Shown here: positions 30,011 to 44,905 of the stretch, one piece after another
Numbering within the stretch: the first letter of the stretch is position 1
Layout: each line of letters opens with the position of its first letter
Source of the DNA: Candidatus Moranbacteria bacterium UBA2282
GTDB lineage: Bacteria > Patescibacteriota > Minisyncoccia > Moranbacterales > UBA2206
Assembly: GCA_002345745.1 (NCBI GenBank)
Contig: DDWQ01000011.1
Coordinates: 85,995 to 149,994 of the forward strand
Length of the DNA stretch: 64,000 bases
Direction of reading: 5' to 3'
Notes under the pieces: generated by a model
Seen by the model: only the letters and a program-made list of their open reading frames with translations
Databases searched by the model: none
Told to the model about the DNA's origin: nothing
Program-made: the position numbers and the translations under genes

Positions 30011-30060
30011 GTGGATGAGATACTAACTTAGGCGAACTTAGGACGGTCCTAAGGAATATT
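29961..30060. repeat. 50-bp tandem duplication carrying two REP-A cores
   Basis: The unit gtggDtgagatactaacttaggcRaacttaggacggtcctaaggaatat occurs twice. Confidence 0.7.
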
Positions 30061-30065
30061 ATCTT

Positions 30066-30285: not shown

Positions 30286-30286
30286 T

Positions 30287-30916: not shown

Positions 30917-30961
30917 ATTCTAGCACAAAGCGCCTTCTATACCTAGACTTACTTAGGCAAA

Positions 30962-30979
30962 CTTAGGACGGTCCTAGGG
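30962..30979. repeat. REP-A copy (upstream of RAYT-1)
   Basis: cttaggacggtcctaggg. Confidence 0.7.
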
Positions 30980-30986
30980 AATATAG

Positions 30987-31175
30987 TTCATACTTAACTA
31001 TGAACCAATATAACATATTTATATCTTTTGTCAATACCTCAATTTTATGGCTTAATACAGCCCACTTTACCCAAGCCATCTTTTCCAAAATGGCTGGCGC
31101 AGAAAGGCAGGAGAGAAAAATTCGTCGTGGGTGAGATACTAACTTAGGCAAACTTAGGACGGTCCTAGGGAATAG
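30987..31175. repeat. Copy C of the 185-bp element ending in REP-A
   Basis: Near-identical to 29822..30010. Confidence 0.7.
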
Positions 31176-31627
31176 TGGTAACAGTTTCGGCAAGGTTTCA
31201 TAAAAAGTTTGTCGACGATGATTGATACCAAAATATTCTTTGAGCAATTCAATTGATTGTAATTTTGATGCTGGCTGGATAATTCGCATAATTACCAAAT
31301 CATGCAAGAGTGTATTGCCAACAGCGGTAAATTTAAAACGATCAAGTAGTTTGATTAAAATTTCATAGATAAAATTGTAACGAAATCCGATGTATTCACA
31401 TTTATCCAAAATGGCAAAGCTGTGTTGTTCCTCAACTTTATCAAACAAGCTCTGTTGCTTGGTTGTTTTTTAACCCAAGCCCCGGCAATTTTTAGAAGTG
31501 CATCAATTTCTTCATTTGTGCGACCACTGCCAATATGCTTGGACAGTGTCATTTTGCGTTCAAGGTAACTTACAACTTGCACAGCTGTTGCTCCGGAAGC
31601 AGTTTTAGTTTTACGAATATGATACAT
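31176..31627 (-). pseudogene. IS1634/IS4-superfamily transposase remnant (N-terminal part, frameshifted and truncated by the 185-bp element)
   Basis: ORF 31355..31627 begins MYHIRKTKTASGATAVQVVSYLERK..HIGSG, as IS1634 transposases do. It continues in another frame (31176..31448); the C-terminal part of that frame is a translated repeat. Confidence 0.5.
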
Positions 31628-31785
31628 GGCAGTACATTACTACCCTTAGTATGACAAAAAACTCTTTTTTTCACAAATTATCCTTTAGTTTAGCTGAAAT
31701 ATTTTTTTGGAAAAATGAGGCGGACAAGTCGGGACCATGGATATTCGGCAATCCAGCCAATATTTTTCAAACTAAAAAACTTCTG

Positions 31786-31801
31786 CCGAGGACGGTCCTA
31801 G
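31786..31801. repeat. Degenerate REP-A copy
   Basis: gaggacggtcctaggg. Confidence 0.5.
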
Positions 31802-31813
31802 GGAATGTTAACT

Positions 31814-31894
31814 TTATCTTGCAATGTTTTTATCAAATCCACGATTAAAAATGTGATAATATTCGCCAATCGCGAAAAATTCTCTTCGTTGCAT
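31814..31894 (-). pseudogene. Duplicated 5' fragment of the RAYT-1 gene (26 codons then a stop)
   Basis: 31836..31963 duplicates 30858..30985. It encodes MQRREFFAIGEYYHIFNRGFDKNIAR*. Confidence 0.6.
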
Positions 31895-31932
31895 AAACAA
31901 ATTCTAGCACAAAGCGCCTTCTATACCTAGAC

Positions 31933-32412
31933 TTACTTAGGCAAACTTAGGACGGTCCTAGGGAATAAAGCGATATTTCCATAGGTTCTAAAAAAGGAAT
32001 ATCCGTACAATTTAGAATTTTTCATAAATCGAGATCCAAGAATGGCTGCTAGTTCATCATTTCGCTCAATTTCACTGATAAAATTGTTAATTTCCTGTGT
32101 TTTTGCCTGATCATCGCCATGCAAAATGATCACATAATCCATTCCATTTTCAAAGCCAAAATTGAAGGCAACCTTGTGAGATCCTCCTAAACCATAATTA
32201 TTATCATTTCTAAAGACATTAAATTTATCATGGCCAATTGTTTTTGTTTTTATCGCATTAATTGCTGAATTTATAGTATCATCCTTGCTTTGATTATCTA
32301 TGATAATCACTTTCTCAATCTTATCCAATAGATTTTCATCAAAACCAGCAATTACCCGCTTTATTTGGATTTCACAATTATAACAAGGAATCGCCACTAA
32401 TATTTTTGACAT
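31933..32412 (-). pseudogene. GT2 glycosyltransferase truncated after about 150 aa by the REP/RAYT-fragment insertion
   Basis: The N-terminus ILVAIPCYNCE...IIIDNQSKDDT...HGDD is a GT2 A-domain. The last 10 codons (FPRTVLSLPK) are a translated REP-A. There are no C-terminal TM helices. Confidence 0.5.
31946..31963. repeat. REP-A copy
   Basis: cttaggacggtcctaggg. Confidence 0.7.
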
Positions 32413-32413: not shown

Positions 32414-33109
32414 TTATTTTATATTATTTGAGGTTAGTAAATCATAAGCGGATTTAAAGGAAACTGCACTAACTTCTAAAATAATCGGATCGGAAGAAAT
32501 TTTATGCCTCAATCCAATCATATCTTTTTTATAGTTTTTCAGAGCCTCCTCTTTATTTTGGGGCAATTTAGAAATTCTAGCAATACTTAGATGCAATATA
32601 TTTTTCATCTTAATCGGTTTTAATCCGCATTTCTCATATATGTGCCCCAATTCCAATCTTACTCTTTCAATTTCTTCTGGCATATCAGTCGAAGTCAACA
32701 AAACATTTTCCTTATCTATTAAAATATATTTAAATTGAATTTGAATGCCGGAAAGATTTTGAATGTTCTCTTTAAATTCACCGCTTTCAATAATTTCTTT
32801 AAAAATTTTTTCTCTATCTGAAACTTGAATGCCCTCAAATAATCCCTCTAGCAAAGTTGAGTGAAAAGGATAATCTTTACCGCCTAAAATAAAACCGACT
32901 TCATTTTCTTTCCCGATTATTTCTATATTAGATGCTATCCGTTGATTTATTTGGTCATTGGATTCATCAGAAAATAAGATAGCACAATTCAATCTATTTT
33001 TTAGATCCTCTGAAAATCCATTAAATATTTTAATGTTCTCGGCATCATTGAGAGACTTTCTCCCAGAATAATCTATGCCAGCATATTTTATTATTGTTTC
33101 TTTGAACAT
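32414..33109 (-). CDS. Putative 2H-phosphoesterase superfamily protein (LigT/CPDase-like)
   Basis: Two H-x-S/T-x motifs, PFHSTLLEG and ILHLSIARI, about 90 aa apart as in LigT. Otherwise unrecognised. Confidence 0.4.
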   Translation of the reverse strand: MFKETIIKYAGIDYSGRKSLNDAENIKIFNGFSEDLKNRLNCAILFSDESNDQINQRIASNIEIIGKENEVGFILGGKDYPFHSTLLEGLFEGIQVSDREKIFKEIIESGEFKENIQNLSGIQIQFKYILIDKENVLLTSTDMPEEIERVRLELGHIYEKCGLKPIKMKNILHLSIARISKLPQNKEEALKNYKKDMIGLRHKISSDPIILEVSAVSFKSAYDLLTSNNIK

Positions 33110-33122: not shown

Positions 33123-33479
33123 TTATTTAAAAACAAATTTTAATCTAAACCAAAAATTCCAGAAAAATGTAACAGCCATCGATATGAATTTTCCAATATA
33201 TGGCAATAATTTGAAATGCTCAACACAAATAATGGTAATAAAAATCTGCAATAAAACTCCAAAAATACTCCCAACAAAAATCATTATTATTTCCTTTCCA
33301 ATTTTTTCTGATCCATTTTTAAAAACAATCTTCTTACTAAAATACCAATTTAGAACTGTAGCTATCACAAAACTAATCACTATGGCAATAACATAATATA
33401 TCTGTAAATAACTATTCAAAAATATGAAAGCTTCCATCTCAAATGCGACAAGAACAAGTGCGACAGCAAAATATCTCAC
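33123..33479 (-). CDS. GtrA-family small membrane protein (polyprenol-P-sugar flippase-like)
   Basis: 118 aa with 4 TM helices and the C-terminal WNFWFRLKFVFK pattern of GtrA. The start is taken at the internal Met (MVRYFAV) to avoid overlapping the upstream gene. ORF track 33123..33575. Confidence 0.55.
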   Translation of the reverse strand: MRYFAVALVLVAFEMEAFIFLNSYLQIYYVIAIVISFVIATVLNWYFSKKIVFKNGSEKIGKEIIMIFVGSIFGVLLQIFITIICVEHFKLLPYIGKFISMAVTFFWNFWFRLKFVFK

Positions 33480-33516
33480 CATCTTTTCATAAATAAAATT
33501 AAATTTATTCACATAA

Positions 33517-35682
33517 TTATATAATATCTTCATGTATAAAATCATCGTAAAATTCATTAAGTAACCTAATTGCAACGCTATAGAATGCTAAAAAAGTTTC
33601 TGGGTTTATCTTTGCTCGGTATGTTAACATTCTGAAATAATGGATAGCTTCATGAAATTTTATCAACTTTAACCTATCATGTGTTAAATTTTCAGATAGT
33701 ATTTTTTCTAAATGCAGGAATAACTCAGAATATTTTGAAGAAATATTCTCTTCAAAATAAATCTCATTTCCATTGTATCGAACACTTTCCAACATGCATA
33801 AAAATTCATACCCAGAATGCAATGATTGATAGAGCTTTGCATAGTCAACTAATGGATCGGAGATATAATTTTCATTATTAGGATCCAATAATATAAACTT
33901 GCCCTCATTTACTATAATATTATCAACTGTCAAATCTCCATGCAACGAGGTTTGATAATATCTTGAGATAGATTGCATTATCCTTTCATTGCTGGTTATT
34001 TTTTCCATTATTATAGAAAAATTATCATACTCCTTTCCATTTATAATTATTTTTGGATAATCTATAATTTGAGGAAGTTGATGATTTAAAACCAAGCAAT
34101 CATTAACTTTATCAAATATCTTTGTTTTTATATAATAATCTAGATTTTTAACTGATTCAATAATTTCTCCACTAGAATATAGCTCCTTATTAACAAAAAT
34201 TATAACGTCCTCTAATATTTTTTTGCTTACATCTATATTACTTGAGTGAATAAAATCAAAAAATGGAATATATTCTTTATTATATTCTATATCAATTGAA
34301 TAAGATACTTCGTCTTTTTCACATCCAATTATATTGGGAATATTTTCCAAATGCTGCCGTTCCTTTATCCAATTATATTGATCTTCTAATTTAGCTGCGT
34401 GCTGTAAGAGAGTTATCTTTCGTACACACTCTCTCTCACCATTCCACGCCAAGATAGTAACCGCATTCGACCCGCCCTTAAACGTTTTCAAAAGTCGTGT
34501 TTTATCCGATATTTCTTGCAAACTAATAATCCGTGCGATTTCTAGATTTTTAAAATATGCATCTAAAAAATAGCTCATTTCATTCGAAATATCCTCATAT
34601 CTAAATAACTTATTCATATATTTACCACTCGCATCCCCAGCTATCTCCTTCGCGCTAAAAAAATCAAATATTCCATATTGTCTAAGACCATTACCAAAAA
34701 GAAATAGTGCTCCAATTATGGATATCGGAATAACAAGAATCACCCACGAAATCAGAGAGAAAGATAATATATTTTCTTTCTGAGATATTATATTGCTCAC
34801 TATAATTGTCAAATAATAATGATATGTCCCAACATACGCTGGCCCAGATGGAATAGAGGCGCTAATGTATGAGGCAAGTGATATCAATAAATTCTTAGCA
34901 ACATCTCCATTTTTAAATACTACCTTTGCCAATAACAGGAGGGACTCCACATAAAATATCCACATCAATACAGACAAGGCTACATATTTTTTAATACTTA
35001 CTTTTTGGTATATTGTATTTATTCCATAAATAACAGACCAGATAATAAATCTTAACTTATCTTTTATTTTATTATTAAAAAGATTTGTTAATTTATAAAA
35101 GAATTTAAGAAGCATTTTGTTTTGAACATATAATTCAAATATTACAATCAATATAACCAGAGAAATCGCAATCATAGCAATAATAAACGGAAGCAGGATG
35201 GATATAAAATTCAGAGCTACTTTAACATTTCCACCCACAAGAAGCGCAACGGCAACTCCAGCCAACACGATAATCACATCAATTGATCTTTCAAATAAAA
35301 TCGTTATAAAAACGACTGTGCGGCTAATATTGAGCTTTTTTCCGATTACATGCGCCCGCATAAGCTCTCCCATTCTAAAAGGTAATATGGAATTAAATAG
35401 AAAACCTATCCCTAGGGACTTAAATAAAAATAAACTATTTGTGTTTTTAATTGGATTAATTAATAATGATGACTTGTATGCTCTTAAATAATGACCGACC
35501 ATTTGAAGCAACACGATTAAAATAAGCAGTAAAATACTAGGGTGAAAAAAATTTTCGTCCCGTAGATCAATATTAAATTGGCTAAAAAATCTAATTAGGT
35601 AAAATAGACTTACCACTGTGCCAATAAAAAAAATGCTCAATAATAGTTTTTTGCTTTTTAACATCATATTTATACCATTCAA
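33517..35682 (-). CDS. Fusion protein: N-terminal flippase-like LPG-synthase-TM domain plus C-terminal APH/choline-kinase-like phosphotransferase domain
   Basis: The N-terminal 330 aa are polytopic and carry the ILPFRMGELMRAHVI (P-x-R-x-GE-x-x-R) hallmark. The C-terminal part carries HGDLTVDNIIV and LLDPNN (the APH catalytic and Mg-binding loops). Confidence 0.6.
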   Translation of the reverse strand: MNGINMMLKSKKLLLSIFFIGTVVSLFYLIRFFSQFNIDLRDENFFHPSILLLILIVLLQMVGHYLRAYKSSLLINPIKNTNSLFLFKSLGIGFLFNSILPFRMGELMRAHVIGKKLNISRTVVFITILFERSIDVIIVLAGVAVALLVGGNVKVALNFISILLPFIIAMIAISLVILIVIFELYVQNKMLLKFFYKLTNLFNNKIKDKLRFIIWSVIYGINTIYQKVSIKKYVALSVLMWIFYVESLLLLAKVVFKNGDVAKNLLISLASYISASIPSGPAYVGTYHYYLTIIVSNIISQKENILSFSLISWVILVIPISIIGALFLFGNGLRQYGIFDFFSAKEIAGDASGKYMNKLFRYEDISNEMSYFLDAYFKNLEIARIISLQEISDKTRLLKTFKGGSNAVTILAWNGERECVRKITLLQHAAKLEDQYNWIKERQHLENIPNIIGCEKDEVSYSIDIEYNKEYIPFFDFIHSSNIDVSKKILEDVIIFVNKELYSSGEIIESVKNLDYYIKTKIFDKVNDCLVLNHQLPQIIDYPKIIINGKEYDNFSIIMEKITSNERIMQSISRYYQTSLHGDLTVDNIIVNEGKFILLDPNNENYISDPLVDYAKLYQSLHSGYEFLCMLESVRYNGNEIYFEENISSKYSELFLHLEKILSENLTHDRLKLIKFHEAIHYFRMLTYRAKINPETFLAFYSVAIRLLNEFYDDFIHEDII

Positions 35683-35698
35683 CCTAAAAATTTTATAG

Positions 35699-36859
35699 TT
35701 ATTTTTTAATTATTATTTCAAGAATTTTCTCTATATTTTCAACTTGTTTTTTTGGAGAATATTTTTCAAGACAATAATCATTTGCAGATAAAATCAAAGA
35801 TTGATCTATCCCCTTTTCATATACAGTCTTAATGGTTGAATACCAATCACCTTCCTCACATAAATATCCATTTTTTTCATTATTAATATTTTCTTTATAT
35901 ACAAAGGTAGGTATTGCACATGTTATCGTTCCAACCACAGCAGCTTCAAAAAATTTTAATTCTGACTTGCAATTGGTAAATTCATTGTCCACTAATGGTA
36001 CAATATTAACATCAACTTCTGATATCTTTCTTTGTAATGTCAAAAAATCAACAAAGGGACGGTGAATTATTCTTTTTTTATTAGCTAAATCTTTCATATT
36101 ATCAGGAAATTCCATATAGCCAGTTACTTCCAATGTAATATTAGGACAATCCTCGAGCAATCTAATCATCTCACTTGAAATTTTTTTAAAATCATTTATA
36201 TGGGAAGGTGTTCCACTAAAATATCCAACTCTAAAAAATTTCTTTTTCTGAATTCTCTCTTTACTTTTTTGTGAAAACAACCTAGCTGAAATTTTAATCT
36301 GCTCATTATTTAAAAAATTGTTTACAATAAAAACTGGTTTCTTAAACGTATTTTCGATTTTATCACACAAAAATTTATTTGTACCTATAAAAAAATCACA
36401 TTTCTTCCCCATAAGCCACAACCTAGAAACATAAGAAAACCAATAGGAATAATTTTCTGGATTGTTAAAATCAATATTTAACGTATTCATTATTAGTGGG
36501 ATCTTTTCAACATCAAAAACTAAATCATCGGTATCAAATACTATTGGTTTTGTTGCTTTTTTAATCTTATTTATGAATTCATCTATCCGTATTGACCATC
36601 TCGTTCGCACAAAAATGAATATATCAACTTTTTCAATATATTCACCTAATAACGGTAATTCATCTTCAAAGAAATACGAACCCACCCATTTGGAGCTATA
36701 GTCTAGGGATTGGCACATATTGTACACACGATATCTAAATGTACTTGAATCGGCTTTTTCATAAATATAAACAACTCTTTGTTTGATATTTTCTTTTTTT
36801 AATATCTCTAATCTTTCCCAAAAAGAAATATTCCAAGGCTCACTATTAATCTTTTCCAT
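35699..36859 (-). CDS. Putative GT-B glycosyltransferase (GT4-like), paralog of 52370..53551
   Basis: Shares FDTDDLVFD, RVGYFSGTPSH and SELKFFEAAVVG motifs with the paralog. C-terminal E..EA..G pattern. Confidence 0.5.
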   Translation of the reverse strand: MEKINSEPWNISFWERLEILKKENIKQRVVYIYEKADSSTFRYRVYNMCQSLDYSSKWVGSYFFEDELPLLGEYIEKVDIFIFVRTRWSIRIDEFINKIKKATKPIVFDTDDLVFDVEKIPLIMNTLNIDFNNPENYSYWFSYVSRLWLMGKKCDFFIGTNKFLCDKIENTFKKPVFIVNNFLNNEQIKISARLFSQKSKERIQKKKFFRVGYFSGTPSHINDFKKISSEMIRLLEDCPNITLEVTGYMEFPDNMKDLANKKRIIHRPFVDFLTLQRKISEVDVNIVPLVDNEFTNCKSELKFFEAAVVGTITCAIPTFVYKENINNEKNGYLCEEGDWYSTIKTVYEKGIDQSLILSANDYCLEKYSPKKQVENIEKILEIIIKK

Positions 36860-36885
36860 ATTATTTTTTTATAACAGCTTCTTAA

Positions 36886-38256
36886 CTATTTATTTTCATG
36901 CATAAATTCAAGAACTTTTTCAAAACTTTTTCCCCAATCTCTCTCTATATTATTTTTTTGAAAATTAACTTCCCTTTTCTGTTCGTCTTTTACCAACGCA
37001 ACCGCCTTGACGAATCCATCCAAAATCGAAGGGGTGTCAAGATCTGAACATATAATGTTTTCAGAATAATATAAGGACTGCTTATTTAAAAATTTATTTG
37101 TTAAAACCACCCCGCCTGAGGCAGCGATGTCTAGCGGTGGATAGCTTGGATGAGGAGTGCTCATAAGACACAATCCCAAATCAACATTTTTTATAAATTC
37201 TGAATATTGCAACCATGTCATCTGTCCTAGAGATATCGATTTCATCCCATTTGAAAATACAACGGAATCGATTTCGGATCCAGCAAAATAAATATCCCAA
37301 TCATCCTTATTGATTATTCCAGCTGAAATAGCCTCTTCTAAAATTTTTATTCCAGTGTAAAACATGTTTCTGGGATTATTTGGTCTTGCGTAAAAAAATA
37401 ATTTATATTTATTTTTTTTATCAATATTTTTAGTATTTCCTGATGAATATATATCTTCCGGAAAAGCTGGTTCAAAATAAATTCCATTCTCTGTCACATT
37501 GTTATGATTATTTTGCAAATAATAATCATAGAGAAGTTTGGAGTTTATAATATATTTAACATTTTTTTTCAATAAGGTAGTTGTACATAAAATCTGCTCG
37601 TCACCACTTGGATAAAAAAATGATTCTACCTCTTGGAGGATATAGAAAAAATCTTTTCTAAAATTAATTTCTTCCACGACTTTTGTTGTCCACCACGATG
37701 TTGATAGATAAATATCTTTATCCGATGTTTCAATGCCAGAATACCTGCCAGAATTATTCCTGTCATAATCAGAAAAATATTCTACCTCTTTTGGGATTGA
37801 GATATTCATTAATTTTAAAAAATCCTCAAAATCAATAGGATTGTTTTCTGTCTCTCGAGTGACTATTCGTAAAGAAAAATTGTATTTATTGGCAAATAAA
37901 GTAGCAAGAATCAATGATGTTGCTACGCCCCCAAATAAACTTTCCTTTTTAACGCTATCTGTGACAATATTTATTCGGTATTTTTCTCTTTCAACTTTTA
38001 TATACTTTATGGGCTGAATATTTCTGAACCTTTCATTATATAAATCACTTGCCATTACCTCCCTCTTAATTAACACATTCACATTTTTTGGGAATGAGAC
38101 AATCTTTAATTGGAGGAAATCTAATGATTTATATAGAAAAGCCTTCAATCCGTATTTTTTCAACACCAAAATCGCTGCGCGAGGAACATCTTTCAGTCGT
38201 ATAGATGGGTTTTTTATTTTATAATTATTGTTCTGCATTTTTTTATTATTATTCAA
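36886..38256 (-). CDS. Hypothetical protein, possibly a GT-B-like glycosyltransferase (RgpF/WsaF-like)
   Basis: FFYARPNNPRNMF and C-terminal MSTPHPSYPPLDIAASGGVVLTNKF resemble rhamnosyltransferase-type GT-B C-domains. Weak call. Confidence 0.35.
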   Translation of the reverse strand: MNNNKKMQNNNYKIKNPSIRLKDVPRAAILVLKKYGLKAFLYKSLDFLQLKIVSFPKNVNVLIKREVMASDLYNERFRNIQPIKYIKVEREKYRINIVTDSVKKESLFGGVATSLILATLFANKYNFSLRIVTRETENNPIDFEDFLKLMNISIPKEVEYFSDYDRNNSGRYSGIETSDKDIYLSTSWWTTKVVEEINFRKDFFYILQEVESFFYPSGDEQILCTTTLLKKNVKYIINSKLLYDYYLQNNHNNVTENGIYFEPAFPEDIYSSGNTKNIDKKNKYKLFFYARPNNPRNMFYTGIKILEEAISAGIINKDDWDIYFAGSEIDSVVFSNGMKSISLGQMTWLQYSEFIKNVDLGLCLMSTPHPSYPPLDIAASGGVVLTNKFLNKQSLYYSENIICSDLDTPSILDGFVKAVALVKDEQKREVNFQKNNIERDWGKSFEKVLEFMHENK

Positions 38257-38259
38257 TAT

Positions 38260-39315
38260 TTAACCAAAATAATTCTTAATCTGTTTATATTTTTTATATA
38301 AAAAATTTGGAATTTTCCAACGCAGAGAATTGACGACGGAGGACAATTGTTTTTCTTTTTGAATAATTTCATCTTTTAGATGTTGTACTTTTTCTTCCCC
38401 AGCCTCTATTTCTCGCTCATTAGCTTGTGTTTTTTGCTTTTCATTCAATACCTCTTTAGTTTTTATTTCAATACTAATTTTATTTTCTATATTTATTTTA
38501 TTCATCATATCCATCGCATTTTTTATCGTTTTCAAGAAAAGATTATCATCAATCAAGCTTTTAGCTATTTCTAAATCCTTTAATTCATTGCTTTTCTTAA
38601 TAAAATATATTTTTCTATAAGATGGGTCTTGATTATCAAAAGGAAAAACCTCTGTATTATAAAAATAATTAAATTTCTGGTGATTACTATGGAGTTCATC
38701 TGACATATTTTCTTCAATCAAAAATTCCATCCCTAATAATAATTGCCACAAAAACAATCTGTTATTTTGTAGCTTCTGAAATGATACTGCCTTTTCTTCT
38801 AACAAATTTTCAAATTCAATCATTTCTGGCAAACCATTTTCTATATGCTCCTTGAGCCAAATATGATCCTCTCCATTATGTAGCATTTTATAATTTTCAT
38901 TTGCATTTATTTCTGCTTGCGCAACCGCTGGAGAGTAGAAAGGTGCCACTAGGACAACTCCTAATTTTGCAACTCGCAAGTTTTCCTCTAAAAAATTTTT
39001 TCTTTTTTCTTTTGGTATATGTTCAAAAACATCAGTAGAAACAACCCAGTCAAAACTTTCATCAACCAATGGCATATTGCAGCCATCCCCCTTGATAAAA
39101 TTTTCGTCCTCAGAATCAAGAAACGGATCGAGATAAAAGACATCATCCTCTGGAAAAAATTTTTTCATCCAGTTACCCCTACCACCCACATCAAGAATTT
39201 TTAATTTTTCATTACCTTTGCGATTTTTTTCTACAATATTCTGAATAGGTGCAAATCGTCCATACAAATGGAAAACCATTTCTTTTTTAAATTGTTCTTC
39301 TGCTATTTTTTCCAT
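38260..39315 (-). CDS. Class I SAM-dependent methyltransferase with a C-terminal coiled-coil region
   Basis: LDVGGRGNWM (motif I), DESFDWVVSTDVFEHIP, LRVAKLGVVLV. The C-terminal roughly 80 aa are K/E-rich and predicted helical. Confidence 0.7.
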   Translation of the reverse strand: MEKIAEEQFKKEMVFHLYGRFAPIQNIVEKNRKGNEKLKILDVGGRGNWMKKFFPEDDVFYLDPFLDSEDENFIKGDGCNMPLVDESFDWVVSTDVFEHIPKEKRKNFLEENLRVAKLGVVLVAPFYSPAVAQAEINANENYKMLHNGEDHIWLKEHIENGLPEMIEFENLLEEKAVSFQKLQNNRLFLWQLLLGMEFLIEENMSDELHSNHQKFNYFYNTEVFPFDNQDPSYRKIYFIKKSNELKDLEIAKSLIDDNLFLKTIKNAMDMMNKINIENKISIEIKTKEVLNEKQKTQANEREIEAGEEKVQHLKDEIIQKEKQLSSVVNSLRWKIPNFLYKKYKQIKNYFG

Positions 39316-40601
39316 AATGTTTCTATTTTTATTAATCCATTTTGGTTCTCTTCTTGAGAAATTATTTTAAATCCATAAAACCTATCCTTAAAATCAATTG
39401 GAGTTACACAATCCCAATTAAATAATGCTGCGGTAAATCTATAACTACCCGTGAAAAATTTATTTTCAATAATTACAAAATCAAAAGAGCCAAGACCTTC
39501 GATATAATCTATTATAAATTTAGAAGTTTTTGTATTTGGACCGGAAATATGAATTCCGTCTTGTGTATAAATAGCAACACCGAAGACAGGTTTTTCTATT
39601 TTCTTTTTTGCATTGTAATATATCCGCGCTACAATATCATCCCCTGTCTCAAAAACATTCTTTGCTTTCCCGTCCTTATCCAAAAATTCAACCTTAGTTA
39701 TTTCTATGACTTTACTTTTTCTTTCTTCGCTATCTTCTTTATTGATATTTTTTTTACCATCTTCTTCCTTTTTTTGCTCATCATACATCCTCTTTTCCTC
39801 ATCCGACATATTCTGATAGACATATTCATTGCCAACTTCTTCCGCTTTGCCAATTTTAACAATTTTTCCATTACGAAGCAACATTGCCCGATCGCAATAT
39901 CTTTGCACTACGGCGATATCATGAGTGACAATTATTACTGTTCTCCCCATACCTCGATATCTATTAAATTCTTCCAGACATTTCGATTGAAAATTTGAAT
40001 CTCCCACCGCCAAAACCTCATCCATAAGTAGTATATCACGATTAGCGTGAATGGACACCGAAAAAGCCAACCTCACCTGCATGCCGGAAGAATAGTTTTT
40101 CAATTTTTGGTCAATGAAGCGTTCCAGTTCAGAAAATTTCACAATGGAATCGAATTTCTTGTCGATTTGCTTTTTGGTCATCCCCAGCACTGTGGCGTTC
40201 AAATAGACATTATCCCGTCCGGAAAGCTCGGGATTGAAACCGATGCCCAACTCCAAAAAGGGTGAAATCATGCCATCAATCTTTACCCCGTGAAATTCCG
40301 CCTTAGGCGGACGGGCTCCGCCCGATTTCACTGGGGTGCCTTTCTTGGGTTTATCCGCCTGATAAATCCCCGCCAAAACCTTCAACAGCGTCGATTTTCC
40401 GCTGCCATTCCGACCAATGATGCCAAAAAATTCGCCCTTTTTCACCTCAAAAGAAACATCGTCTAATGCTTTGAATTCTTCGTAACCCCTCTTTTTACTA
40501 AAAACCGAAATAGCAGCTCCTCTTAGCGAGGAGATTTTTTCATGTGGTATTTTAAACGTCTTACTGACGTTTTTTACACTAATTGCGATGTCTTTATCCA
40601 T
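39303..40601 (-). CDS. wzt: ABC transporter ATP-binding protein of Wzt type, with a C-terminal carbohydrate-binding domain
   Basis: Walker A GRNGSGKST, signature SSGMQ, Walker B LLMDEVLAVGD. A roughly 170-aa C-terminal beta-rich extension. A roughly 20-aa GC-rich insertion lies after Walker A. Confidence 0.8.
   Translation of the reverse strand: MDKDIAISVKNVSKTFKIPHEKISSLRGAAISVFSKKRGYEEFKALDDVSFEVKKGEFFGIIGRNGSGKSTLLKVLAGIYQADKPKKGTPVKSGGARPPKAEFHGVKIDGMISPFLELGIGFNPELSGRDNVYLNATVLGMTKKQIDKKFDSIVKFSELERFIDQKLKNYSSGMQVRLAFSVSIHANRDILLMDEVLAVGDSNFQSKCLEEFNRYRGMGRTVIIVTHDIAVVQRYCDRAMLLRNGKIVKIGKAEEVGNEYVYQNMSDEEKRMYDEQKKEEDGKKNINKEDSEERKSKVIEITKVEFLDKDGKAKNVFETGDDIVARIYYNAKKKIEKPVFGVAIYTQDGIHISGPNTKTSKFIIDYIEGLGSFDFVIIENKFFTGSYRFTAALFNWDCVTPIDFKDRFYGFKIISQEENQNGLIKIETLWKK
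40287..40336. repeat. GC-rich nested-hairpin element inserted in frame in the wzt ATPase domain
   Basis: ccccgtgaaat tccgcc tta ggcgga cgggc tcc gcccg atttcactgggg. It encodes the extra KPKKGTPVKSGGARPPKAEF segment. Confidence 0.55.
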
Positions 40602-40812: not shown

Positions 40813-41172
40813 CTATTTACCCTCTATTTTGTTTATGATGGTTGATAATATATTTTTTATCTCGTTTGCTTCTCGCTTGATGTCTTGCATACAATCTTTT
40901 AGCTCTGGGTTTGCTTCTTCAATAAGGTCTAGCCAGTGAATTGTTTCCTTGGCTTCTTTTCTAGCAATCTTCATTCGCATTATCAAATCTTTTTTGCCTA
41001 AAGAATCATTTGCTTCTCGATAATTTGCTCCAACAGAACCAGCCGAGCCTACAGCTTGCCCTGTTAGGCGATTGTTTATTGAATTTTTTGGCAAAGAAAT
41101 ACACAATCTAACTACCCGTTTTCCGAATTCAGTAGTTCTTTCCTCTAAATCAAATTTGCGATTATTTTCCAT
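40813..41172 (-). CDS. Four-helix-bundle protein (23S rRNA intervening-sequence protein family)
   Basis: 119 aa. AVGSAGSVGANYREA and KETIHWLDLIEE segments typical of this family. Confidence 0.7.
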   Translation of the reverse strand: MENNRKFDLEERTTEFGKRVVRLCISLPKNSINNRLTGQAVGSAGSVGANYREANDSLGKKDLIMRMKIARKEAKETIHWLDLIEEANPELKDCMQDIKREANEIKNILSTIINKIEGK

Positions 41173-41229
41173 AGATATTTTTTTAATGTTTGTTTTTTGT
41201 ATTTTGATGCTTGAAATTTGTTTGGTTAT

Positions 41230-41300
41230 TGTATCTTGGTGTTTGTATCTTATTTTTGCGTTTGTATCTTGCTTAGCGTTTGTATCTTAAGCATTATTTG
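41230..41300. repeat. Iteron-like direct repeats: 4 copies of GTTTGTATCTT spaced 15-18 bp apart
   Basis: ttgtatcttggt, gtttgtatcttat, gcgtttgtatcttgc, gcgtttgtatcttaa. Confidence 0.6.
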
Positions 41301-41321
41301 ATATTTCTTAGATATTATAGC

Positions 41322-42662
41322 CTATTTTTTAATAATTTTCCAATATCCTCCCTTGTCGGGACCAACCCTTTTTAGCAAATCTTTTTCCTTTAATTTTGAG
41401 ATATCTCTTTTAATAGTTTTTTCATTAACACCTGCCTTTTTGGCTATTTCTGGAATTGTAATTCTATTATTATTTCTAATAATTTCCACAACAATATCTT
41501 CTCGATTTTCAGGGACATTTTCAGGGACATTTTCAGGGACATTTTCTAATGCCATTCTTTTGAAAATTATAGAGAACCAATTCTCGTTGGTTTCAATTTT
41601 TGGATTTGGAAGACCATATTCTTTCATGGCTTTTTTCATCCGCAGAATTCCAGACCCTATTTTCTCCACCAAATCCATTCTCTGCATCAAGCCAAATAGA
41701 AGATTATTTCTGGACAAACTTCTTTTACCCAATTCTTTTATCGTCATTCCCCGCACTAGCCCTCCGGGATTAGTTATTTCAACTCGATCAGAAAAAATAT
41801 AAATCTGAATATTCGCACCTGTCACGAAATAGTTTCTGTGCGCAATTGCATTCAGGATTGCTTCGCGCAATGCGTCTTCTGGTAGTTCTAATTTTTCTTC
41901 TCGCGGTCCACCTTTTATGATAAATTCTGTGTTCAACTTTGAACGCAGATAATCCATGGCATTCTCATAATTGCTAAATAGGTCAGCATCAAATTCTTTT
42001 CGGTCCAATATTCTGTATTTTGTCCTTCCATAAAAAAGCACGCATGTAATCGTTGACTGCAAAAGAAACTTTGTAATATCATTGGAAAAAAGAAGTACAC
42101 CGGCATTTTTCATTTTATCATCAGAGACCAAATTAAGATTTGTCAAAATGTCGCGTGTTGGCAAAATTTTTCTTATATGAGATAGTCGTAAAAAGTTATT
42201 AAAAGATTTTTTATTTAAATCCTTTTTGATATCAAATTTTTCATTAACCCTCTCATCAAAAAGAACCAGGCCTTCTTTTTGAAAAAAATATTTGATTTCA
42301 TTTCTCGTAAGTTGCTGACTATTGGCTCCTTGGCGCAAGTAAAATTTTCCCACAATTGAATATGGTTTTTCTTTGCCCTCTGGGACATCAACAATCAAAA
42401 TACCCTCAATTTCTTGCAAATGTATGGTCATTTTCGGATCAAGATTTCTGCCAATAACCTGAATTTCTGATTTTAATTTGTTGGTAATTTTGATTTCTTT
42501 TTTTATTCCGGAATCAGTAATTCCAATAAATATCTTTCCCCCAGAAGCATTGGCAAAAGCACACATTTCTTTTCCAATTGTGGAACTATGCGACTCTTTA
42601 AATTCAATATTATAGCCTTCTCCTTGGCTGATATAAAATTCTAATTCTTTTTTCATTAACAT
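41322..42662 (-). CDS. AlbA_2 (Schlafen-like) plus HATPase_c_4 (RecG-C-like) plus wHTH putative ATP-dependent DNA-binding regulator
   Basis: N-terminal YNIEFKES...CAFANASGG (AlbA_2/divergent AAA). The C-terminal wHTH is RITIPEIAKKAGVNEKTIKRDISKLKE. It contains an ENVPENVPENVPEN repeat. Confidence 0.6.
   Translation of the reverse strand: MLMKKELEFYISQGEGYNIEFKESHSSTIGKEMCAFANASGGKIFIGITDSGIKKEIKITNKLKSEIQVIGRNLDPKMTIHLQEIEGILIVDVPEGKEKPYSIVGKFYLRQGANSQQLTRNEIKYFFQKEGLVLFDERVNEKFDIKKDLNKKSFNNFLRLSHIRKILPTRDILTNLNLVSDDKMKNAGVLLFSNDITKFLLQSTITCVLFYGRTKYRILDRKEFDADLFSNYENAMDYLRSKLNTEFIIKGGPREEKLELPEDALREAILNAIAHRNYFVTGANIQIYIFSDRVEITNPGGLVRGMTIKELGKRSLSRNNLLFGLMQRMDLVEKIGSGILRMKKAMKEYGLPNPKIETNENWFSIIFKRMALENVPENVPENVPENREDIVVEIIRNNNRITIPEIAKKAGVNEKTIKRDISKLKEKDLLKRVGPDKGGYWKIIKK
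41507..41546. repeat. 12-bp tandem repeat (3 units) inside a CDS, encoding (VPEN)n
   Basis: agggacattttc repeated three times. Confidence 0.8.
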
Positions 42663-42684
42663 TTTTTTACTTCTAATTTTTATT

Positions 42685-43548
42685 TTAGTTGCTTAGTGTC
42701 ACATTCACCTCTTTCAACTCATTGAAATCTTCCCATTCGATTAGATTGGTTTTTGAGAGAATTTTTTCAGCCTCCCTATTCTTCAGATGATAATTACAGC
42801 CGATATCATAATTAGGAACAGTCAATGAGGGAAATTCTTTAATAAAATAGAGTTTATTGTCATCACTATATAAAAACAAAAAGGATTTTATTGGTTTTAT
42901 TTTATTTATCAAACTAAGCCCGAAAATAAATTTGGAGTTTGTTTCGCGACCACCTGATGATCCGCCTCCACCTTTGCGAAAAACCTTCCTATCATCCTCC
43001 TCCCAAACAAAAATAGTATCATATGGATTTCGCCAATCCACATGATTCAAGGGAGACGGTAAATTATAATATCGACTCTTTTTAATTTCTACTCGTGGCT
43101 TAAACAACTTTTCATGATTTTTATATTTTTTCAATATTTTTTCTCTATATCGAGGCTCCAATTCGTTCTTGATGATATAGTCATCCAGTTCCTTTTTCAT
43201 TTCTTCTTTTTTCCAAACGGCCGTGTATTTATCCAGCCATTTTGCATACACCTCATTTCCCTCGCGATGATCAAATTCAGTAAAAAAATACTCATACAAG
43301 AGTTCCATATAGTGGGACTGAATTGGCATTCGTGTCTTTTCAACGTATTTCTTATTATTCCAAAATTTTGGATCGAGATTATCAATAATGATAGTAATGG
43401 TATATGGATTTTTATTTTTTAGTTTTTGAGCAATTGTTTTGTGATCATTAAGCACATCAAATGCATGCTCAGATATCGAAAAAATTTCCGGATTATATTC
43501 CTGACTCAGCTTGGATTTATTAATTTTAATGCTTTTATTTACTAACAC
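42685..43548 (-). CDS. Hypothetical protein (two-lobed, with an internal GGGGSSGG linker)
   Basis: 287-aa ORF with no recognisable motifs. The Gly-linker codons are locally GC-rich. Confidence 0.4.
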   Translation of the reverse strand: MLVNKSIKINKSKLSQEYNPEIFSISEHAFDVLNDHKTIAQKLKNKNPYTITIIIDNLDPKFWNNKKYVEKTRMPIQSHYMELLYEYFFTEFDHREGNEVYAKWLDKYTAVWKKEEMKKELDDYIIKNELEPRYREKILKKYKNHEKLFKPRVEIKKSRYYNLPSPLNHVDWRNPYDTIFVWEEDDRKVFRKGGGGSSGGRETNSKFIFGLSLINKIKPIKSFLFLYSDDNKLYFIKEFPSLTVPNYDIGCNYHLKNREAEKILSKTNLIEWEDFNELKEVNVTLSN

Positions 43549-43675
43549 ATTAATTGATAAGTTTGTTATAATGATATTATATCACCATACACAAAAACTG
43601 TCTAGTTCCAATTTTTTATATATTCAGGTTGAGAAGCACAGTGCTTAATTTGAAAGTTTAAATACGCTTGAAATA

Positions 43676-43745
43676 ACCAAGATACAATACTTAATTTAAA
43701 ATTTATAATTTAAAATTACTCTTTGGTTTATTGTATTTGTTTGAT
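43676..43745. repeat. Right-hand copy of the AACCAAGATACAA repeat plus a degenerate inverted partner
   Basis: aaccaagatacaatac ... attgtatttgtttg. The same 13-mer occurs at 40653. Confidence 0.5.
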
Positions 43746-43800
43746 AATTGATCCATTGAAAATTTATTCCGCATGTATTTTTCTGATATTGGGTCATTTT

Positions 43801-44190: not shown

Positions 44191-44213
44191 ATTTTTTATT
44201 TATTTTTAAAAAT

Positions 44214-44825: not shown

Positions 44826-44905
44826 ATCGCCGAATTGTTGATAGTATGTCCCCGGAATTTGTTCTTCAATTTGACCATCTTTATCAATGCCCGTGTGATT
44901 ACCAT

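Follow-up and report, generated by a model that had tools for sequence, protein, structure and literature searches.

The region described here is an ordinary 'cap-and-export' system for a cell-wall sugar polymer, next to a separate decoration gene set. The membrane kinase of the region belongs to the latter set, which serves sugar decoration, is widespread and unstudied and, in this genome, is broken. Overall, we think it probable that two functionally separate modules, one for export and capping and one for decoration, share one operon. All of the open reading frames named in the original prediction are present, at the coordinates it gave, on the minus strand of the window (the whole 64,000-nucleotide stretch of DNA that was analysed), and the genes from wzt through to a family 2 glycosyltransferase (GT2) follow one another closely, overlapping or separated by ≤26 nt. 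The export and capping genes, and the insert that separates the first two, are as follows.

50182..50958, minus strand: wzm candidate (ABC-2 permease; Pfam ABC2_membrane, E 1.8e-14)
40813..50107, minus strand: unrelated cargo between wzm and wzt (Pfam)
39303..40601, minus strand: wzt, nucleotide-binding domain (ABC_tran, E 3e-19) and C-terminal carbohydrate-binding module (Wzt_C, E 4.4e-21)
39327..39728, minus strand: Wzt_C carbohydrate-binding module, residues 292-425 (PF14524, E 4.4e-21, model positions 3-142 of 143)
38260..39315, minus strand: predicted chain terminator, a SAM methyltransferase with ruler stalk (13-nt overlap between its start and the end of wzt)
38596..39315, minus strand: class-I methyltransferase catalytic head, residues 1-240 (invariant residues, Foldseek)
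38332..38547, minus strand: single 72-residue helix, residues 257-328, a coiled-coil-type spacer (AlphaFold pLDDT >90)
38266..38325, minus strand: basic aromatic C-terminal helix, residues 331-350 (alignment; conserved S-x-x-W-K/R motif)
36886..38256, minus strand: WsaF-like GT-B glycosyltransferase (WsaF_C, E 2e-41; WsaF_N, E 2e-11)
35699..36859, minus strand: second GT-B-like glycosyltransferase (weak GT1_4 match, PF13692, E 1.5e-4, below the curated cut-off)

In the 432-aa Wzt, the C-terminal extension that had been proposed to recognise a capped glycan end is a true Wzt_C module by its Pfam match. The best solved relative of the protein is full-length Aquifex aeolicus Wzt (8dku/7k2t, E 3e-58), and the module itself gives a weak direct match to the A. 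aeolicus CBD (6o14/8dky). The wzm candidate, which also matches an NCBIfam Wzm/RfbD-type galactan permease (E 2e-12), is displaced to a position 9.6 kb upstream of wzt, behind the cargo genes; in the relatives L062, L074 and L099, wzm is directly upstream of wzt. The cargo comprises 23S_rRNA_IVP, AlbA_2+HATPase_c_4+HTH, an 833-aa lipase-like protein, Y1_Tnp, a zinc-ribbon protein and unknowns, with REP-like repeats at 48184-50160. Three of four independent metagenome contigs have its wzt-proximal part (AlbA_2/HATPase_c_4, 23S_rRNA_IVP) ahead of wzt, and L001 carries the insert back as far as the lipase-like gene. On the other side of the methyltransferase, the WsaF-like enzyme is probably the rhamnosyltransferase of the polymerase, while the second GT-B enzyme has a homologue in only 3 methyltransferase loci. 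RmlD (62838-63917), two NTP_transferase genes (59647-61341) and several GT-C proteins are also present in the window.

The Wzt and methyltransferase genes form a co-conserved pair whose stop and start codons often overlap. Of the 46 metagenome loci that match the methyltransferase best (L063-L108), 24 have wzt upstream on the same strand, and in 16 of these linked loci it overlaps the methyltransferase or lies within 60 nt of it; several of the remaining loci begin at a contig edge. Matches of the 351-aa window methyltransferase to Methyltransf_11/25 are weak and partial (E 1e-7). Nevertheless, motif I (D42-G44-G45) and other invariant residues are kept across the family (105 homologues), with D42, G44, G45, D63, D89, D95, E98 and H99 invariant in the alignment of the head. 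The AlphaFold model (pLDDT 95) has a class-I core (1-240), a continuous helix (257-328) and a terminal helix (331-350), in line with the predicted methyltransferase with a C-terminal coiled coil next to wzt. Across 41 homologues the spacer measures 69-115 aa, and in 23 of them its length is an exact multiple of 7, compared to about 6 by chance; the stalk lengthens or shortens by whole heptads, as does the ruler of E. coli O8 WbdD. The tail carries a net charge of +6 (family median +7) with a hydrophobic moment of about 0.5, and is predicted to contact the membrane or the polymerase. The data support a chain-terminator anatomy of catalytic head, heptad-quantised helical spacer and basic C-terminal tail. 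All described terminators have this coiled-coil ruler architecture of head, coiled coil and basic tail (PMC11231755).

The best Foldseek matches of the methyltransferase are the sugar O-methyltransferases AtmM (6uvq) and RebM (3bus), both with E about 2e-8. Overall, the matches are generic class-I enzymes, phosphoethanolamine N-methyltransferases included, and WbdD is absent from the top 50. Such matches would suit an enzyme that methylates internal residues or a non-glycan substrate, its helix being only an oligomerisation or localisation device, as would the 9 of 24 methyltransferase-linked Wzt proteins that are only about 230-280 aa long, i.e. lack the CBM. We regard this alternative as quite unlikely: the methyltransferase is translationally coupled to wzt in many genomes, its spacer varies by heptads, and its anatomy is that of the terminators. 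We infer that methylation is terminal rather than internal and that the stalk functions as a ruler.

The kinase is part of a fusion protein encoded directly after the glycosyltransferases.

33517..35682, minus strand: PplT/MprF-flippase-type membrane domain fused to a divergent APH-like kinase, 721 aa
34711..35628, minus strand: PF03706 (LPG_synthase_TM / PplT) polytopic domain, residues 19-324 (Pfam, E 1.3e-26)
33520..34629, minus strand: protein-kinase-like (APH-type) domain, residues 352-721 (catalytic set K422, D583, N588, D600)

The predicted fusion of an LPG-synthase-TM domain to an APH-type kinase is real. PF03706 is matched by all 43 members of the fusion family and APH (PF01636) by 22 of them. 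In AglD, PF03706 has been proposed to act as the flippase domain for lipid-linked sugars, and in archaea it adjoins GT2 and GT-C genes (PMC5898192). By sequence, the C-terminal 370 aa of the window protein have no Pfam or PDB match; the domain is assigned as a kinase because of the APH matches in homologues, the AlphaFold/Foldseek comparison and the invariant catalytic residues. The AlphaFold model (pLDDT 90, pTM 0.85) resembles fructosamine-3-kinase, APH(3') and ethanolamine kinase (Foldseek: 3jr1, 1j7l, 2qg7), with a linker of about 20 residues tying the kinase to the membrane domain. The G403-G404-S405 loop, K422, D583, N588 and D600 are invariant across the 43 sequences, so the catalytic residues are intact, as the prediction required, and the HGDLxxxN...DP stretch aligns to the protein-kinase HRDLKxxN...DFG. 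No characterised kinase is close in sequence (PDB profile matches E 0.4 or worse). The kinase is covalently fused to a PplT domain in about two thirds of family representatives, and stand-alone kinases of 320-350 aa account for 35 of the best 147 additional representatives.

The original prediction joined these proteins into a split version of WbdD. By analogy with the O9a type, the membrane kinase would phosphorylate the glycan terminus, the methyltransferase would methylate the phosphate and Wzt_C would read the methyl-phosphate cap. The Wzt/methyltransferase pair survives from this scheme, with its co-conserved and overlapping genes, but the kinase is not supported as the third member. In its favour, the kinase and methyltransferase genes share an operon and a strand in the window, as the fusion does in L061 and L062; the kinase active site is complete; methyl-phosphate caps made by a kinase and a methyltransferase are known, one with an APH-like kinase (PMC11231755, PMC3482155); and the fusion open reading frame has been kept although the GT2 is broken. 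However, co-conservation of the trio fails at the kinase. The fusion occurs in 0 of 80 loci of the window methyltransferase family. Conversely, only 2 of 61 fusion loci have the methyltransferase, at least 7.6 kb away and on the opposite strand, only 4 have a Wzt_C detectable with the window module, and none has wzt within 3 kb. L061 and L062 retain the fusion but have a different methyltransferase family beside wzt, and Actinobacteria and Myxococcota have the fusion while a window-like Wzt_C and methyltransferase were not detected there. The kinase is also common as a stand-alone protein beside HAD and nucleotidyltransferase genes, and the constant partners of the fusion are a HAD hydrolase, a nucleotidyltransferase and a GT2. 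[quoted passage not shown] In the window, the kinase would be held at the membrane by its short linker and the methyltransferase head about 105 Å away, making it difficult for them to share a chain end. Taken together, a capping role for the kinase of this kind appears highly improbable.

The gene neighbourhoods of the fusion point instead to a decoration module. A HAD hydrolase is present in 58/61 fusion loci, always on the same strand (median gap 156 nt), a sugar-1-P nucleotidyltransferase in 55/61, an AglJ/PpgS-like GT2 in 51/61 and a 450-620-aa membrane protein in 25/61, and GtrA directly follows the fusion in 22/61 (median gap 38 nt). The fusion and its partners span Patescibacteria, Myxococcaceae (Myxococcota), Geodermatophilaceae (Actinobacteria), Planctomycetota, Fibrobacteres and Paenibacillus. 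A DPANN archaeal locus has, in a row, a GT2, a stand-alone kinase, a HAD and a nucleotidyltransferase; in Paenibacillus and Saccharibacteria the module sits within rmlABCD rhamnose-glycan clusters; and in the closest relatives, L061 and L062, it is intact, right behind the Wzt cluster. Among NCBIfam models, the HAD scores with the MupP and beta-phosphoglucomutase families (far below curated cut-offs) and the nucleotidyltransferase scores weakly with MurU, HddC, RmlA and GlmU. A GmhA-like SIS gene is present in 2 fusion loci, and the large membrane protein finds no match among the GT-C families of Pfam or NCBIfam. We infer from this company, enzyme substrates and flipping direction included, that the role of the set is side-chain decoration, for which it would make and flip a lipid-linked sugar.

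Alternatively, the substrate of the kinase might be a lipid that the PplT domain holds, and not a soluble sugar, with phosphorylation coupled to translocation. Polyprenol might be converted to polyprenyl phosphate, or a polyprenyl-P-sugar might be phosphorylated and later dephosphorylated by the HAD. Covalent fusion to a lipid-translocating domain in most representatives would be consistent with this, as would the fixed arrangement of the two domains suggested by the model's pTM. MprF likewise pairs a cytoplasmic lipid-modifying domain with the same membrane domain (bioRxiv 10.1101/2022.03.11.483950; PMC11980842), and pentofuranose pathways have lipid-linked sugar-phosphate intermediates that are dephosphorylated later (PMC11127046). 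Yet stand-alone soluble kinases are frequent and keep their HAD and nucleotidyltransferase neighbours, and the nucleotidyltransferase needs a soluble sugar-1-phosphate, the classic product of a kinase and HAD pair; HddA/GmhB/HddC and MupP/AmgK/MurU are precedents for this logic (PMC5371407). We consider a lipid substrate unlikely and retain the soluble-sugar reading.

In the window itself, the genes after the fusion are:

33123..33575, minus strand: GtrA-family small membrane protein (PF04138, E 2e-15)
32414..33109, minus strand: 231-aa protein, no assigned function (no Pfam or NCBIfam match)
31933..32412, minus strand: AglJ/PpgS-like GT2 that breaks off near residue 147 (full length about 255)
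28598..31979, no strand given: field of REP-like repeats (ACTTAGGACGGTCCTRGGGAATA, 9 copies) that also contains gene fragments and a Y1_Tnp gene

What is left of the widely conserved module is its 5' part, namely the fusion, GtrA, the 231-aa protein and the GT2. The only homologue found for the 231-aa protein is the product (235 aa, E 1.6e-53) of the gene in the corresponding position of L062. The GT2, which ends the operon, is 59% identical to residues 1-147 of the L002 GT2, and homology ends where the repeat starts, with about 105 C-terminal residues lost. The decoration module is disrupted in this genome: the GT2 is cut by a REP/RAYT-type element, and the repeat field stands in place of the 3' part of the module. 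An identical 159-aa GT2 product is found in four metagenome assemblies, and every metagenome contig breaks at the repeat field.

The remnant could be a non-functional relic of a recent mobile-element insertion, leaving only the Wzt/methyltransferase/glycosyltransferase part active. This would account for the truncated GT2 and the contig breaks, and no module-type nucleotidyltransferase, HAD or large membrane transferase was found within the 64-kb window. However, the fusion, GtrA and 231-aa open reading frames are all full length, the missing genes could be elsewhere in the genome, and the NTP_transferase genes (59647-61341) and GT-C proteins of the window might substitute. We treat the relic as a possibility to be taken seriously, though not the one we expect.

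In the mechanism that we propose, the displaced wzm, wzt with its Wzt_C, the methyltransferase, and the WsaF-like and second GT-B enzymes would form the export module and, at the cytoplasmic face, assemble a polyprenyl-linked glycan that probably contains rhamnose. The helical stalk, about 105 Å long, would hold the methyltransferase off the membrane-proximal polymerase, anchored by the basic tail. Once the chain was long enough, the enzyme would O-methylate the non-reducing terminal sugar, and Wzt_C would then read the capped end and license export. Capping would need no kinase, just as with the WbdD of E. coli O8 / K. pneumoniae O5 and with Geobacillus WsaE. The full decoration set would consist of the kinase, HAD, nucleotidyltransferase, AglJ/PpgS-like GT2, a flippase (PplT, GtrA or both) and the large polytopic transferase. 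In relatives with an intact set, a sugar-1-phosphate would be made from a sugar or its phosphate by the cytoplasmic kinase domain together with the HAD; the nucleotidyltransferase would convert this to an NDP-sugar; the GT2 would put the sugar onto polyprenyl phosphate; the PplT domain and/or GtrA would flip the lipid-linked sugar; and the large membrane protein would add it to the exported glycan outside the cell (three-component side-chain glycosylation).

Some observations run counter to a strict two-module view. The fusion directly follows the Wzt/methyltransferase/glycosyltransferase genes on the same strand in the window and in L061 and L062, so a physical linkage with the capping genes exists in this lineage, and wzt lies within 10 kb in 17/61 fusion loci. 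The K. pneumoniae O7 terminator has an APH-fold (AmiN-like) kinase (PMC11231755), and the fold is thus compatible with a capping role. As the fusion open reading frame is intact despite the missing presumed pathway partners, it could have another role in this organism.

Compared to known systems, the decoration set resembles the three-component systems (GtrA/GtrB/GtrC; mycobacterial PpgS with GtrA-like Rv3632; archaeal AglD; Citrobacter youngae pentofuranose) in its AglJ/PpgS-type GT2, GtrA, PF03706 and, in intact relatives, large polytopic protein, all beside an ABC-transporter-dependent glycan cluster (PMC11127046, PMC5898192). It differs in that the flippase-type domain is fused to a kinase, with its own kinase/HAD/nucleotidyltransferase set for donor synthesis, in the lack of a GT-C family match for the large membrane protein, and in the truncation of the window copy. 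The MupP-AmgK-MurU and GmhA-HddA-GmhB-HddC routes also have the three enzyme classes side by side, and AmgK is an APH-type anomeric kinase (PMC5371407). Nonetheless, the module kinase is membrane-tethered in most members, and as all NCBIfam scores are far below curated cut-offs, no module enzyme is orthologous to MupP/AmgK/MurU or the Gmh/Hdd enzymes. Like MprF / PplT, the fusion has a clear N-terminal PF03706 followed by a cytoplasmic enzyme domain but, unlike MprF, no aminoacyl-PG synthase domain. A survey of PplT architectures includes kinase and phosphotransferase fusions (bioRxiv 10.1101/2022.03.11.483950); in the literature searched, we found no description or test of a C-terminal APH-like PplT fusion with this gene neighbourhood.

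For the capping module, E. coli O9a / K. pneumoniae O3 WbdD and K. pneumoniae O7 ORF6 likewise bring a kinase, a methyltransferase and a Wzt-CBM into one glycan cluster, with an APH-like (AmiN-like) kinase fold in ORF6 (PMC11231755, PMC3482155). There, one coiled-coil protein contains both a kinase and a methyltransferase domain, whereas the window kinase sits on a polytopic membrane domain, shows no co-conservation with either the methyltransferase or Wzt_C, and is accompanied by a HAD, a nucleotidyltransferase and a GT2 of its own. The WbdD of E. coli O8 / K. pneumoniae O5, which makes a methyl-only cap without kinase activity, shares several features with the window: an N-terminal SAM methyltransferase head, helical spacer and C-terminal basic membrane-proximal helix, encoded beside wzt with Wzt_C (PMC11231755). 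The window enzyme shares no detectable sequence with it beyond the class-I fold and, with 351 aa and a stalk of no more than about 72 residues, falls well short of it in size. As the host is low-GC, Patescibacteria-like and without LPS, its product would, unlike that of the WbdD systems, be a cell-wall or S-layer-type glycan. In the slg cluster of Geobacillus stearothermophilus NRS 2004/3a, WsaE makes a 2-O-methyl cap, its gene overlaps in the series wzm-wzt-wsaE, and WsaF is encoded next to it (PMC2943079). WsaE joins its methyltransferase to two rhamnosyltransferase domains, whereas the window methyltransferase is a separate stalked protein, and wzm in the window is displaced by 9.6 kb of cargo. 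Otherwise the two clusters agree in the order wzt, methyltransferase and WsaF-type glycosyltransferase, in overlapping stop and start codons, in low GC and nearby rml-type genes, and in the model of a methyl cap that is read by Wzt (PMC2943079).

Between 31.9 and 40.6 kb, eight tightly packed open reading frames lie on the minus strand of the window, in a stretch with a GC content of 0.29-0.30 versus 0.35-0.37 in the flanks. In the order of transcription they are:

39303-40601, minus strand: wzt (Pfam ABC_tran and Wzt_C)
38260-39315, minus strand: methyltransferase, its start overlapping the wzt stop by 13 nt
36886-38256, minus strand: WsaF-like glycosyltransferase (Pfam WsaF_N and WsaF_C)
35699-36859, minus strand: second GT-B-like glycosyltransferase
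33517-35682, minus strand: 721-aa membrane protein, here the fusion (Pfam LPG_synthase_TM)
33123-33575, minus strand: GtrA-family protein (Pfam PF04138, E 2e-15)
32414-33109, minus strand: 231-aa protein without a family match
31933-32412, minus strand: GT2 of 159 aa (Pfam Glycos_transf_2)

When 31.5-41.4 kb was scanned for promoters, the scores were no better than those of shuffled sequence, and the combined promoter and terminator scan of the same stretch gave no convincing operon boundary.

The nucleotide-binding domain of Wzt is of the Wzt/TagH type (Pfam ABC_tran, E 3e-19). Its best solved relative is a full-length O-antigen transporter subunit from Aquifex aeolicus (E 3e-58), and TarH/TagH also match (E about 1e-48). 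The C-terminal extension had been likened to the one that reads the capped glycan end in E. coli O8/O9a Wzt, and by HMM search it is a genuine Wzt_C module of the beta-sandwich type (PF14524, E 4.4e-21, whole model covered). The wzm candidate at 50182-50958 is the sole ABC-2 permease gene (ABC2_membrane) and lies ~9.5-9.6 kb upstream of wzt with unrelated inserted genes between them; in relatives, wzm adjoins wzt. The cargo that splits the pair (40813-50107) encodes a 23S_rRNA_IVP four-helix protein, an AlbA_2+HATPase_c_4+HTH protein, an 833-aa LCAT/lipase-like protein bearing a beta-helix, and several unknowns; shortly before wzm, at 51021-51368, there is a second 23S_rRNA_IVP gene. The cargo genes nearest to wzt stand in the same order ahead of wzt in three of the four metagenome contigs compared. 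Within the Wzt nucleotide-binding domain, a 21-residue insertion, KPKKGTPVKSGGARPPKAEFHG, directly follows the Walker A helix (window 40290-40360, Wzt residues about 83-105); among five aligned relatives it is shared only by the closest, at homologous locus L064 (81% identity).

The adjacent methyltransferase scores weakly against Pfam (E 1e-7). Its family comprises no fewer than 105 proteins, and the SAM-binding residues are invariant in the alignment. Its AlphaFold model (pLDDT 95.3), read together with the alignment, has an N-terminal class-I head with a conserved SAM motif (residues 1-240). This is followed in the model by a single unbroken 72-residue helix (residues 257-328, pLDDT above 90; about 105 Å if straight) and a last helix (residues 331-350). 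The tail, a candidate membrane-associating or polymerase-recruiting amphipathic helix, is conserved, basic and aromatic (net charge +6, family median +7; hydrophobic moment about 0.5). The spacer, taken to run from the invariant R234 to the tryptophan conserved in the C-terminal S-x-x-W-K/R motif, varies from 69 to 115 residues across 41 sequences. In 23 of them its length is exactly divisible by seven (70, 77, 84, 91, 98 or 105), where ~6 would be expected by chance. This whole-heptad variation fits a putative coiled-coil ruler.

A search of metagenomes with the methyltransferase alignment gave 80 loci, and linkage of this family to wzt was counted on the 46 (L063-L108) whose methyltransferase matches were strongest. 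A same-strand wzt precedes the methyltransferase gene in 24 of the 46; several of the remaining loci start at a contig edge. The two genes overlap or are separated by ≤60 nt in 16 of the 24 (e.g. -27, -12, -3, +8, +17 nt), and some half of the Wzt proteins encoded there have a length of 410-470 aa, i.e. they include a C-terminal module. By Foldseek, AtmM and RebM, both sugar O-methyltransferases, have the folds closest to the methyltransferase head. WbdD is not among the top 50 Foldseek matches to the model, a profile search of PDB sequences returned generic methyltransferases only, with no WbdD homology, and neither Pfam nor the AlphaFold model gave any kinase domain in the protein. The lack of a WbdD match speaks for a methyltransferase that is not a terminator, the spacer and the linkage to wzt against it; we consider this reading improbable.

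The fusion was correctly predicted to join a membrane flippase-like domain to a kinase. Residues 19-324 match PF03706 (LPG_synthase_TM; E 1.3e-26, model positions 2-302 of 302). The C-terminal 370 residues had no match in Pfam, NCBIfam or PDB sequences. There are 45 full-length homologues (28-55% identity), and in a 43-sequence alignment a G-G-S loop (403-405), K422, an H-G-D motif with D583, N588 and D600 are invariant. Among these, K422, D583, N588 and D600 are likewise invariant in 22 kinase-domain sequences, with the spacing of the beta3 Lys, catalytic Asp, Asn (+5) and metal-binding Asp of APH and protein kinases; the catalytic residues are present. The Pfam APH model does not match the window protein and matches 22 of the 43 homologues at E ≤0.1 (best 1.7e-6). 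An AlphaFold model built on the alignment (pLDDT 90.3, pTM 0.85) gives the C-domain a bilobal, APH-type PKL fold (Foldseek 3jr1, 1j7l, 4ej7 and 2qg7, probability 1.00, target-normalised TM about 0.6), its matches including fructosamine-3-kinase, APH(3') and ethanolamine kinase. Because the catalytic residues are invariant, homologues match APH and the predicted fold agrees, we conclude that the kinase-like domain is genuine but very divergent. A profile of the 22 kinase-domain sequences gave only sub-threshold catalytic-loop matches in the PDB (E 0.4 or worse). The domain could be assigned to none of the named families AmgK, NahK, LicA, WbdD, WaaP and Kdo kinase.

An exhaustive search placed the kinase domain in 777 clusters at 50% identity, 237 of them at E 1e-30 or better. 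The 147 top representatives newly recovered by this search include 91 fusion proteins (600-800 aa) and 35 full-length stand-alone kinases (320-350 aa). For PplT, fusions to kinases and phosphotransferases are on record only as entries in a domain-architecture survey (bioRxiv 10.1101/2022.03.11.483950); PF03706 has been proposed as the AglD flippase domain (PMC5898192), and MprF has been reported as a broad-specificity scramblase (PMC11980842). With many fusions on one side of the count and stand-alone kinases on the other, a lipid-directed kinase acting on a substrate in the PplT cavity appears unlikely. The more specific proposal of a membrane-embedded kinase whose ATP-dependent phosphorylation of a lipid-linked substrate in the flippase-type domain is coupled to translocation appears more doubtful again. 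Such a kinase might act on a polyprenyl-P-sugar or on the glycan while it is linked to polyprenyl-PP, and in Patescibacteria it might be the phosphate source for a methyl-phosphate cap read by Wzt_C. If true, this would be a new form of enzyme-flippase coupling, conserved from DPANN archaea to Actinobacteria.

To identify the partners of the fusion, we combined 59 loci from a one-genome-per-species scan with the fusion alignment and two further contigs (61 loci). The 59 fall in Saccharibacteria, Gracilibacteria, Shapirobacteria and Doudnabacteria, in a Micrarchaeota MAG, and in Myxococcus, Corallococcus, Pyxidicoccus, Geodermatophilaceae, Planctomycetota, Fibrobacteres, Bdellovibrionales and Paenibacillus.

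Table. Genes found with the fusion, as loci out of 61.
HAD / beta-phosphoglucomutase-family hydrolase: 58/61; on the strand of the fusion in every case, at a median gap of 156 nt
NTP_transferase (sugar-1-P nucleotidyltransferase): 55/61; 53 within 3 kb
AglJ/PpgS-like GT2, about 255 aa: 51/61
Unannotated 450-620-aa polytopic protein: 25/61
GtrA: 22/61; median gap 38 nt
Any wzt: 17/61; never within 3 kb, at a median distance of 7.6 kb
Wzt_C detectable with the window's module: 4/61
Methyltransferase family of the window: 2/61; opposite strand, at least 7.6 kb away

Conversely, the fusion was found in none of the 80 methyltransferase loci. By these counts the kinase has its functional partners in the HAD, nucleotidyltransferase and GT2; neither Wzt_C nor the methyltransferase is one of them. 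We refer to the set, with the large membrane protein and with or without GtrA, as the decoration module. The closest relatives of the fusion, proteins P0003 (54% identity) and P0006 (48%), are on contigs that share one super-operon order with each other: first wzm, then wzt with its Wzt_C module, one or more methyltransferases and glycosyltransferases (a WsaF type among them), and then the fusion, GtrA, GT2, nucleotidyltransferase, membrane protein and HAD. In both, the wzt-adjacent methyltransferases come from other families (a 197-aa Methyltransf_23 protein; a 543-aa double methyltransferase). The methyltransferase is thus swapped beside a constant kinase module, so that each part varies without the other.

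The original prediction had made Wzt_C, the stalked methyltransferase and the membrane kinase one capping set, a WbdD split between proteins. Its wzt-methyltransferase pairing is upheld by the same-strand linkage in the strongest loci; co-conservation of the kinase with that pair is not, and the counts in both directions contradict a role for the kinase as chain terminator. The operon adjacency of the fusion and the capping genes is in favour of the split, as is the APH-like terminator kinase that exists in K. pneumoniae O7 (PMC11231755). The co-conservation data and the geometry are against it, and we see very little chance that it applies, even if confined to the lineage of the window. That the decoration-module kinase is not a cap kinase we hold with considerable confidence.

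Against NCBIfam, the GT2 family of the module matches AglJ (E 2e-12) and PpgS (E 1e-4), both far under the curated cut-offs, and the 450-620-aa membrane protein has no match to a GT-C family in Pfam or NCBIfam. Orthology to MurU, HddC or MupP is not supported (19-40 bits versus cut-offs of 250-370). We set aside a choline/ethanolamine (LicA/LicC-like) kinase role, as the constant partner is a GT2 of the polyprenyl-P-sugar-synthase type; no LicD-like gene was seen among the scanned neighbours of the fusion. The module also occurs inside rmlABCD rhamnose-glycan clusters in Saccharibacteria (L013) and Paenibacillus (L060). In the Micrarchaeota MAG (JACROM010000001.1, L058 2497-6386) an archaeal module has an unfused kinase, the gene row being a GT2-like 510-aa protein, a 393-aa kinase, HAD and NTP_transferase. 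Other intact modules have additions: an inositol-monophosphatase-family protein in 8 loci (query of the type at L061, which with L062 is one of the two closest relatives with an intact module), a 210-aa protein without assignment in 10 and a GmhA-like SIS isomerase in 2 (examples at L061 11598-13330, and L062 12601-13401 and 18222-18809). Such extra genes may hint at which sugar is involved. The same-position gene of L062 is also the sole homologue detected for the 231-aa protein of the window (E 1.6e-53). A literature search found no paper describing the fusion/HAD/nucleotidyltransferase/GT2 neighbourhood.

In the window, the decoration module is broken. Homology of the GT2 to its relatives ends at residue 147 of about 255, exactly at the start of a repeat. 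The region 28598-31979 carries the REP-like, partly palindromic motif ACTTAGGACGGTCCTRGGGAATA nine times, along with longer duplicated blocks (90-192 nt) and an IS200-like Y1 transposase gene (30287-30916), of which a 5' fragment lies at about 31828-31970. The pattern resembles a REP/RAYT system, and metagenome assemblies break in this region. An apparent extension of the GT2 alignment to 31804 passes three stop codons and is spurious. Neither the missing 3' half of the GT2 nor a module-type nucleotidyltransferase, HAD or large membrane protein was found within the 64 kb. We rejected an assembly artefact because the same truncated 159-aa product and the same gene order are present in four separate metagenome assemblies, which may represent one population; three of these contigs break off roughly 50-100 nt beyond the stop of the GT2, the fourth some 900 nt later. 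A module remnant that is simply inactive in the window, which would be compatible with our main model, is less likely than not. Beside wzm (48184-50160), four copies of a different hairpin repeat, CTGTAGGGGTTTCACCCCTACA, flank two genes, one for another Y1 transposase (48211-48849) and one for a zinc-ribbon protein (48935-50107).

Most simply, the genes read as a single large locus for a cell-surface glycan, in which an ABC-transporter-dependent backbone pathway sits beside a module that decorates the exported polymer. Glycosyltransferases would lengthen a polyprenyl-linked, probably rhamnose-containing chain; the stalked methyltransferase would O-methylate the terminal sugar once the chain reaches its head; and Wzt_C would bind the methyl cap, followed by export. 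On our analysis, this capping and export half is fairly likely. For the decoration module, the kinase and HAD would work in the manner of the HddA/GmhB or MupP/AmgK routes (PMC5371407) and yield a sugar-1-phosphate, which the nucleotidyltransferase would activate. The GT2 would then form a polyprenyl-P-sugar, the PF03706 domain and/or GtrA would flip it, and the large membrane protein would glycosylate the exported polymer, as in extracytoplasmic three-component systems (PMC11127046). We rate this enzymology at about even, with all of its substrates putative. The window also holds an RmlD-like gene (62838-63917), two NTP_transferases (59647-61341) and several GT4/GT2 genes.

The capping and export half would carry the WbdD/Wzt-CBM 'ruler, cap and checkpoint' strategy into the tiny-genome Patescibacteria, and a 351-aa stand-alone stalked methyltransferase with whole-heptad stalk variation offers a compact model for relating stalk length to chain length. 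Of greater use as a lead is the kinase fusion, the marker of an uncharacterised gene set that probably makes a sugar and delivers it to cell-surface glycans. Its kinase domain spans several phyla, including the cultivable Myxococcus, Geodermatophilus and Paenibacillus, and the set would give the PF03706 'flippase' domain outside MprF a concrete, testable role. For annotation of the window, the kinase should not be labelled a chain terminator.

In a second glycan or glycolipid gene group (9259-26353), the gene of a stand-alone PF03706 (PplT) protein (21627-22571) abuts that of a GT4 (22572-23741). The group also encodes a UDP-glucose dehydrogenase (23944-25290), two GT2s (19810-20751 and 25391-26353) and at least three PMT_2-type GT-C proteins (9259-10854, 11792-13444, 17905-19797). 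It can be likened to the GT + PplT glycolipid operons gpgSDF and hexSDF and to archaeal AglD neighbourhoods.

Cap-and-export logic is established for E. coli O8 and K. pneumoniae O5 (PMC11231755, PMC3482155) and has been proposed for G. stearothermophilus (PMC2943079). The window's methyltransferase resembles WbdD-type terminators in its N-terminal catalytic head, long spacer of varying length and linkage to wzt; unlike the O9a/O3/O7 methyl-phosphate terminators, which have the kinase in the same protein, it has no kinase domain. The Wzt_C and stalked methyltransferase pair falls within this known kind, as an additional member. The three enzyme classes of an AmgK/MupP/MurU- or HddA/GmhB/HddC-like route occur together in relatives, whereas no module-type HAD or nucleotidyltransferase was found in the window; compared with three-component glycosylation, the window has predicted flippase parts (GtrA, PF03706) and a truncated GT2 but no homologue of the large membrane protein of the module. 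The PplT-kinase/HAD/nucleotidyltransferase/GT2 set is an undescribed variant of the polyprenyl-P-sugar decoration systems.
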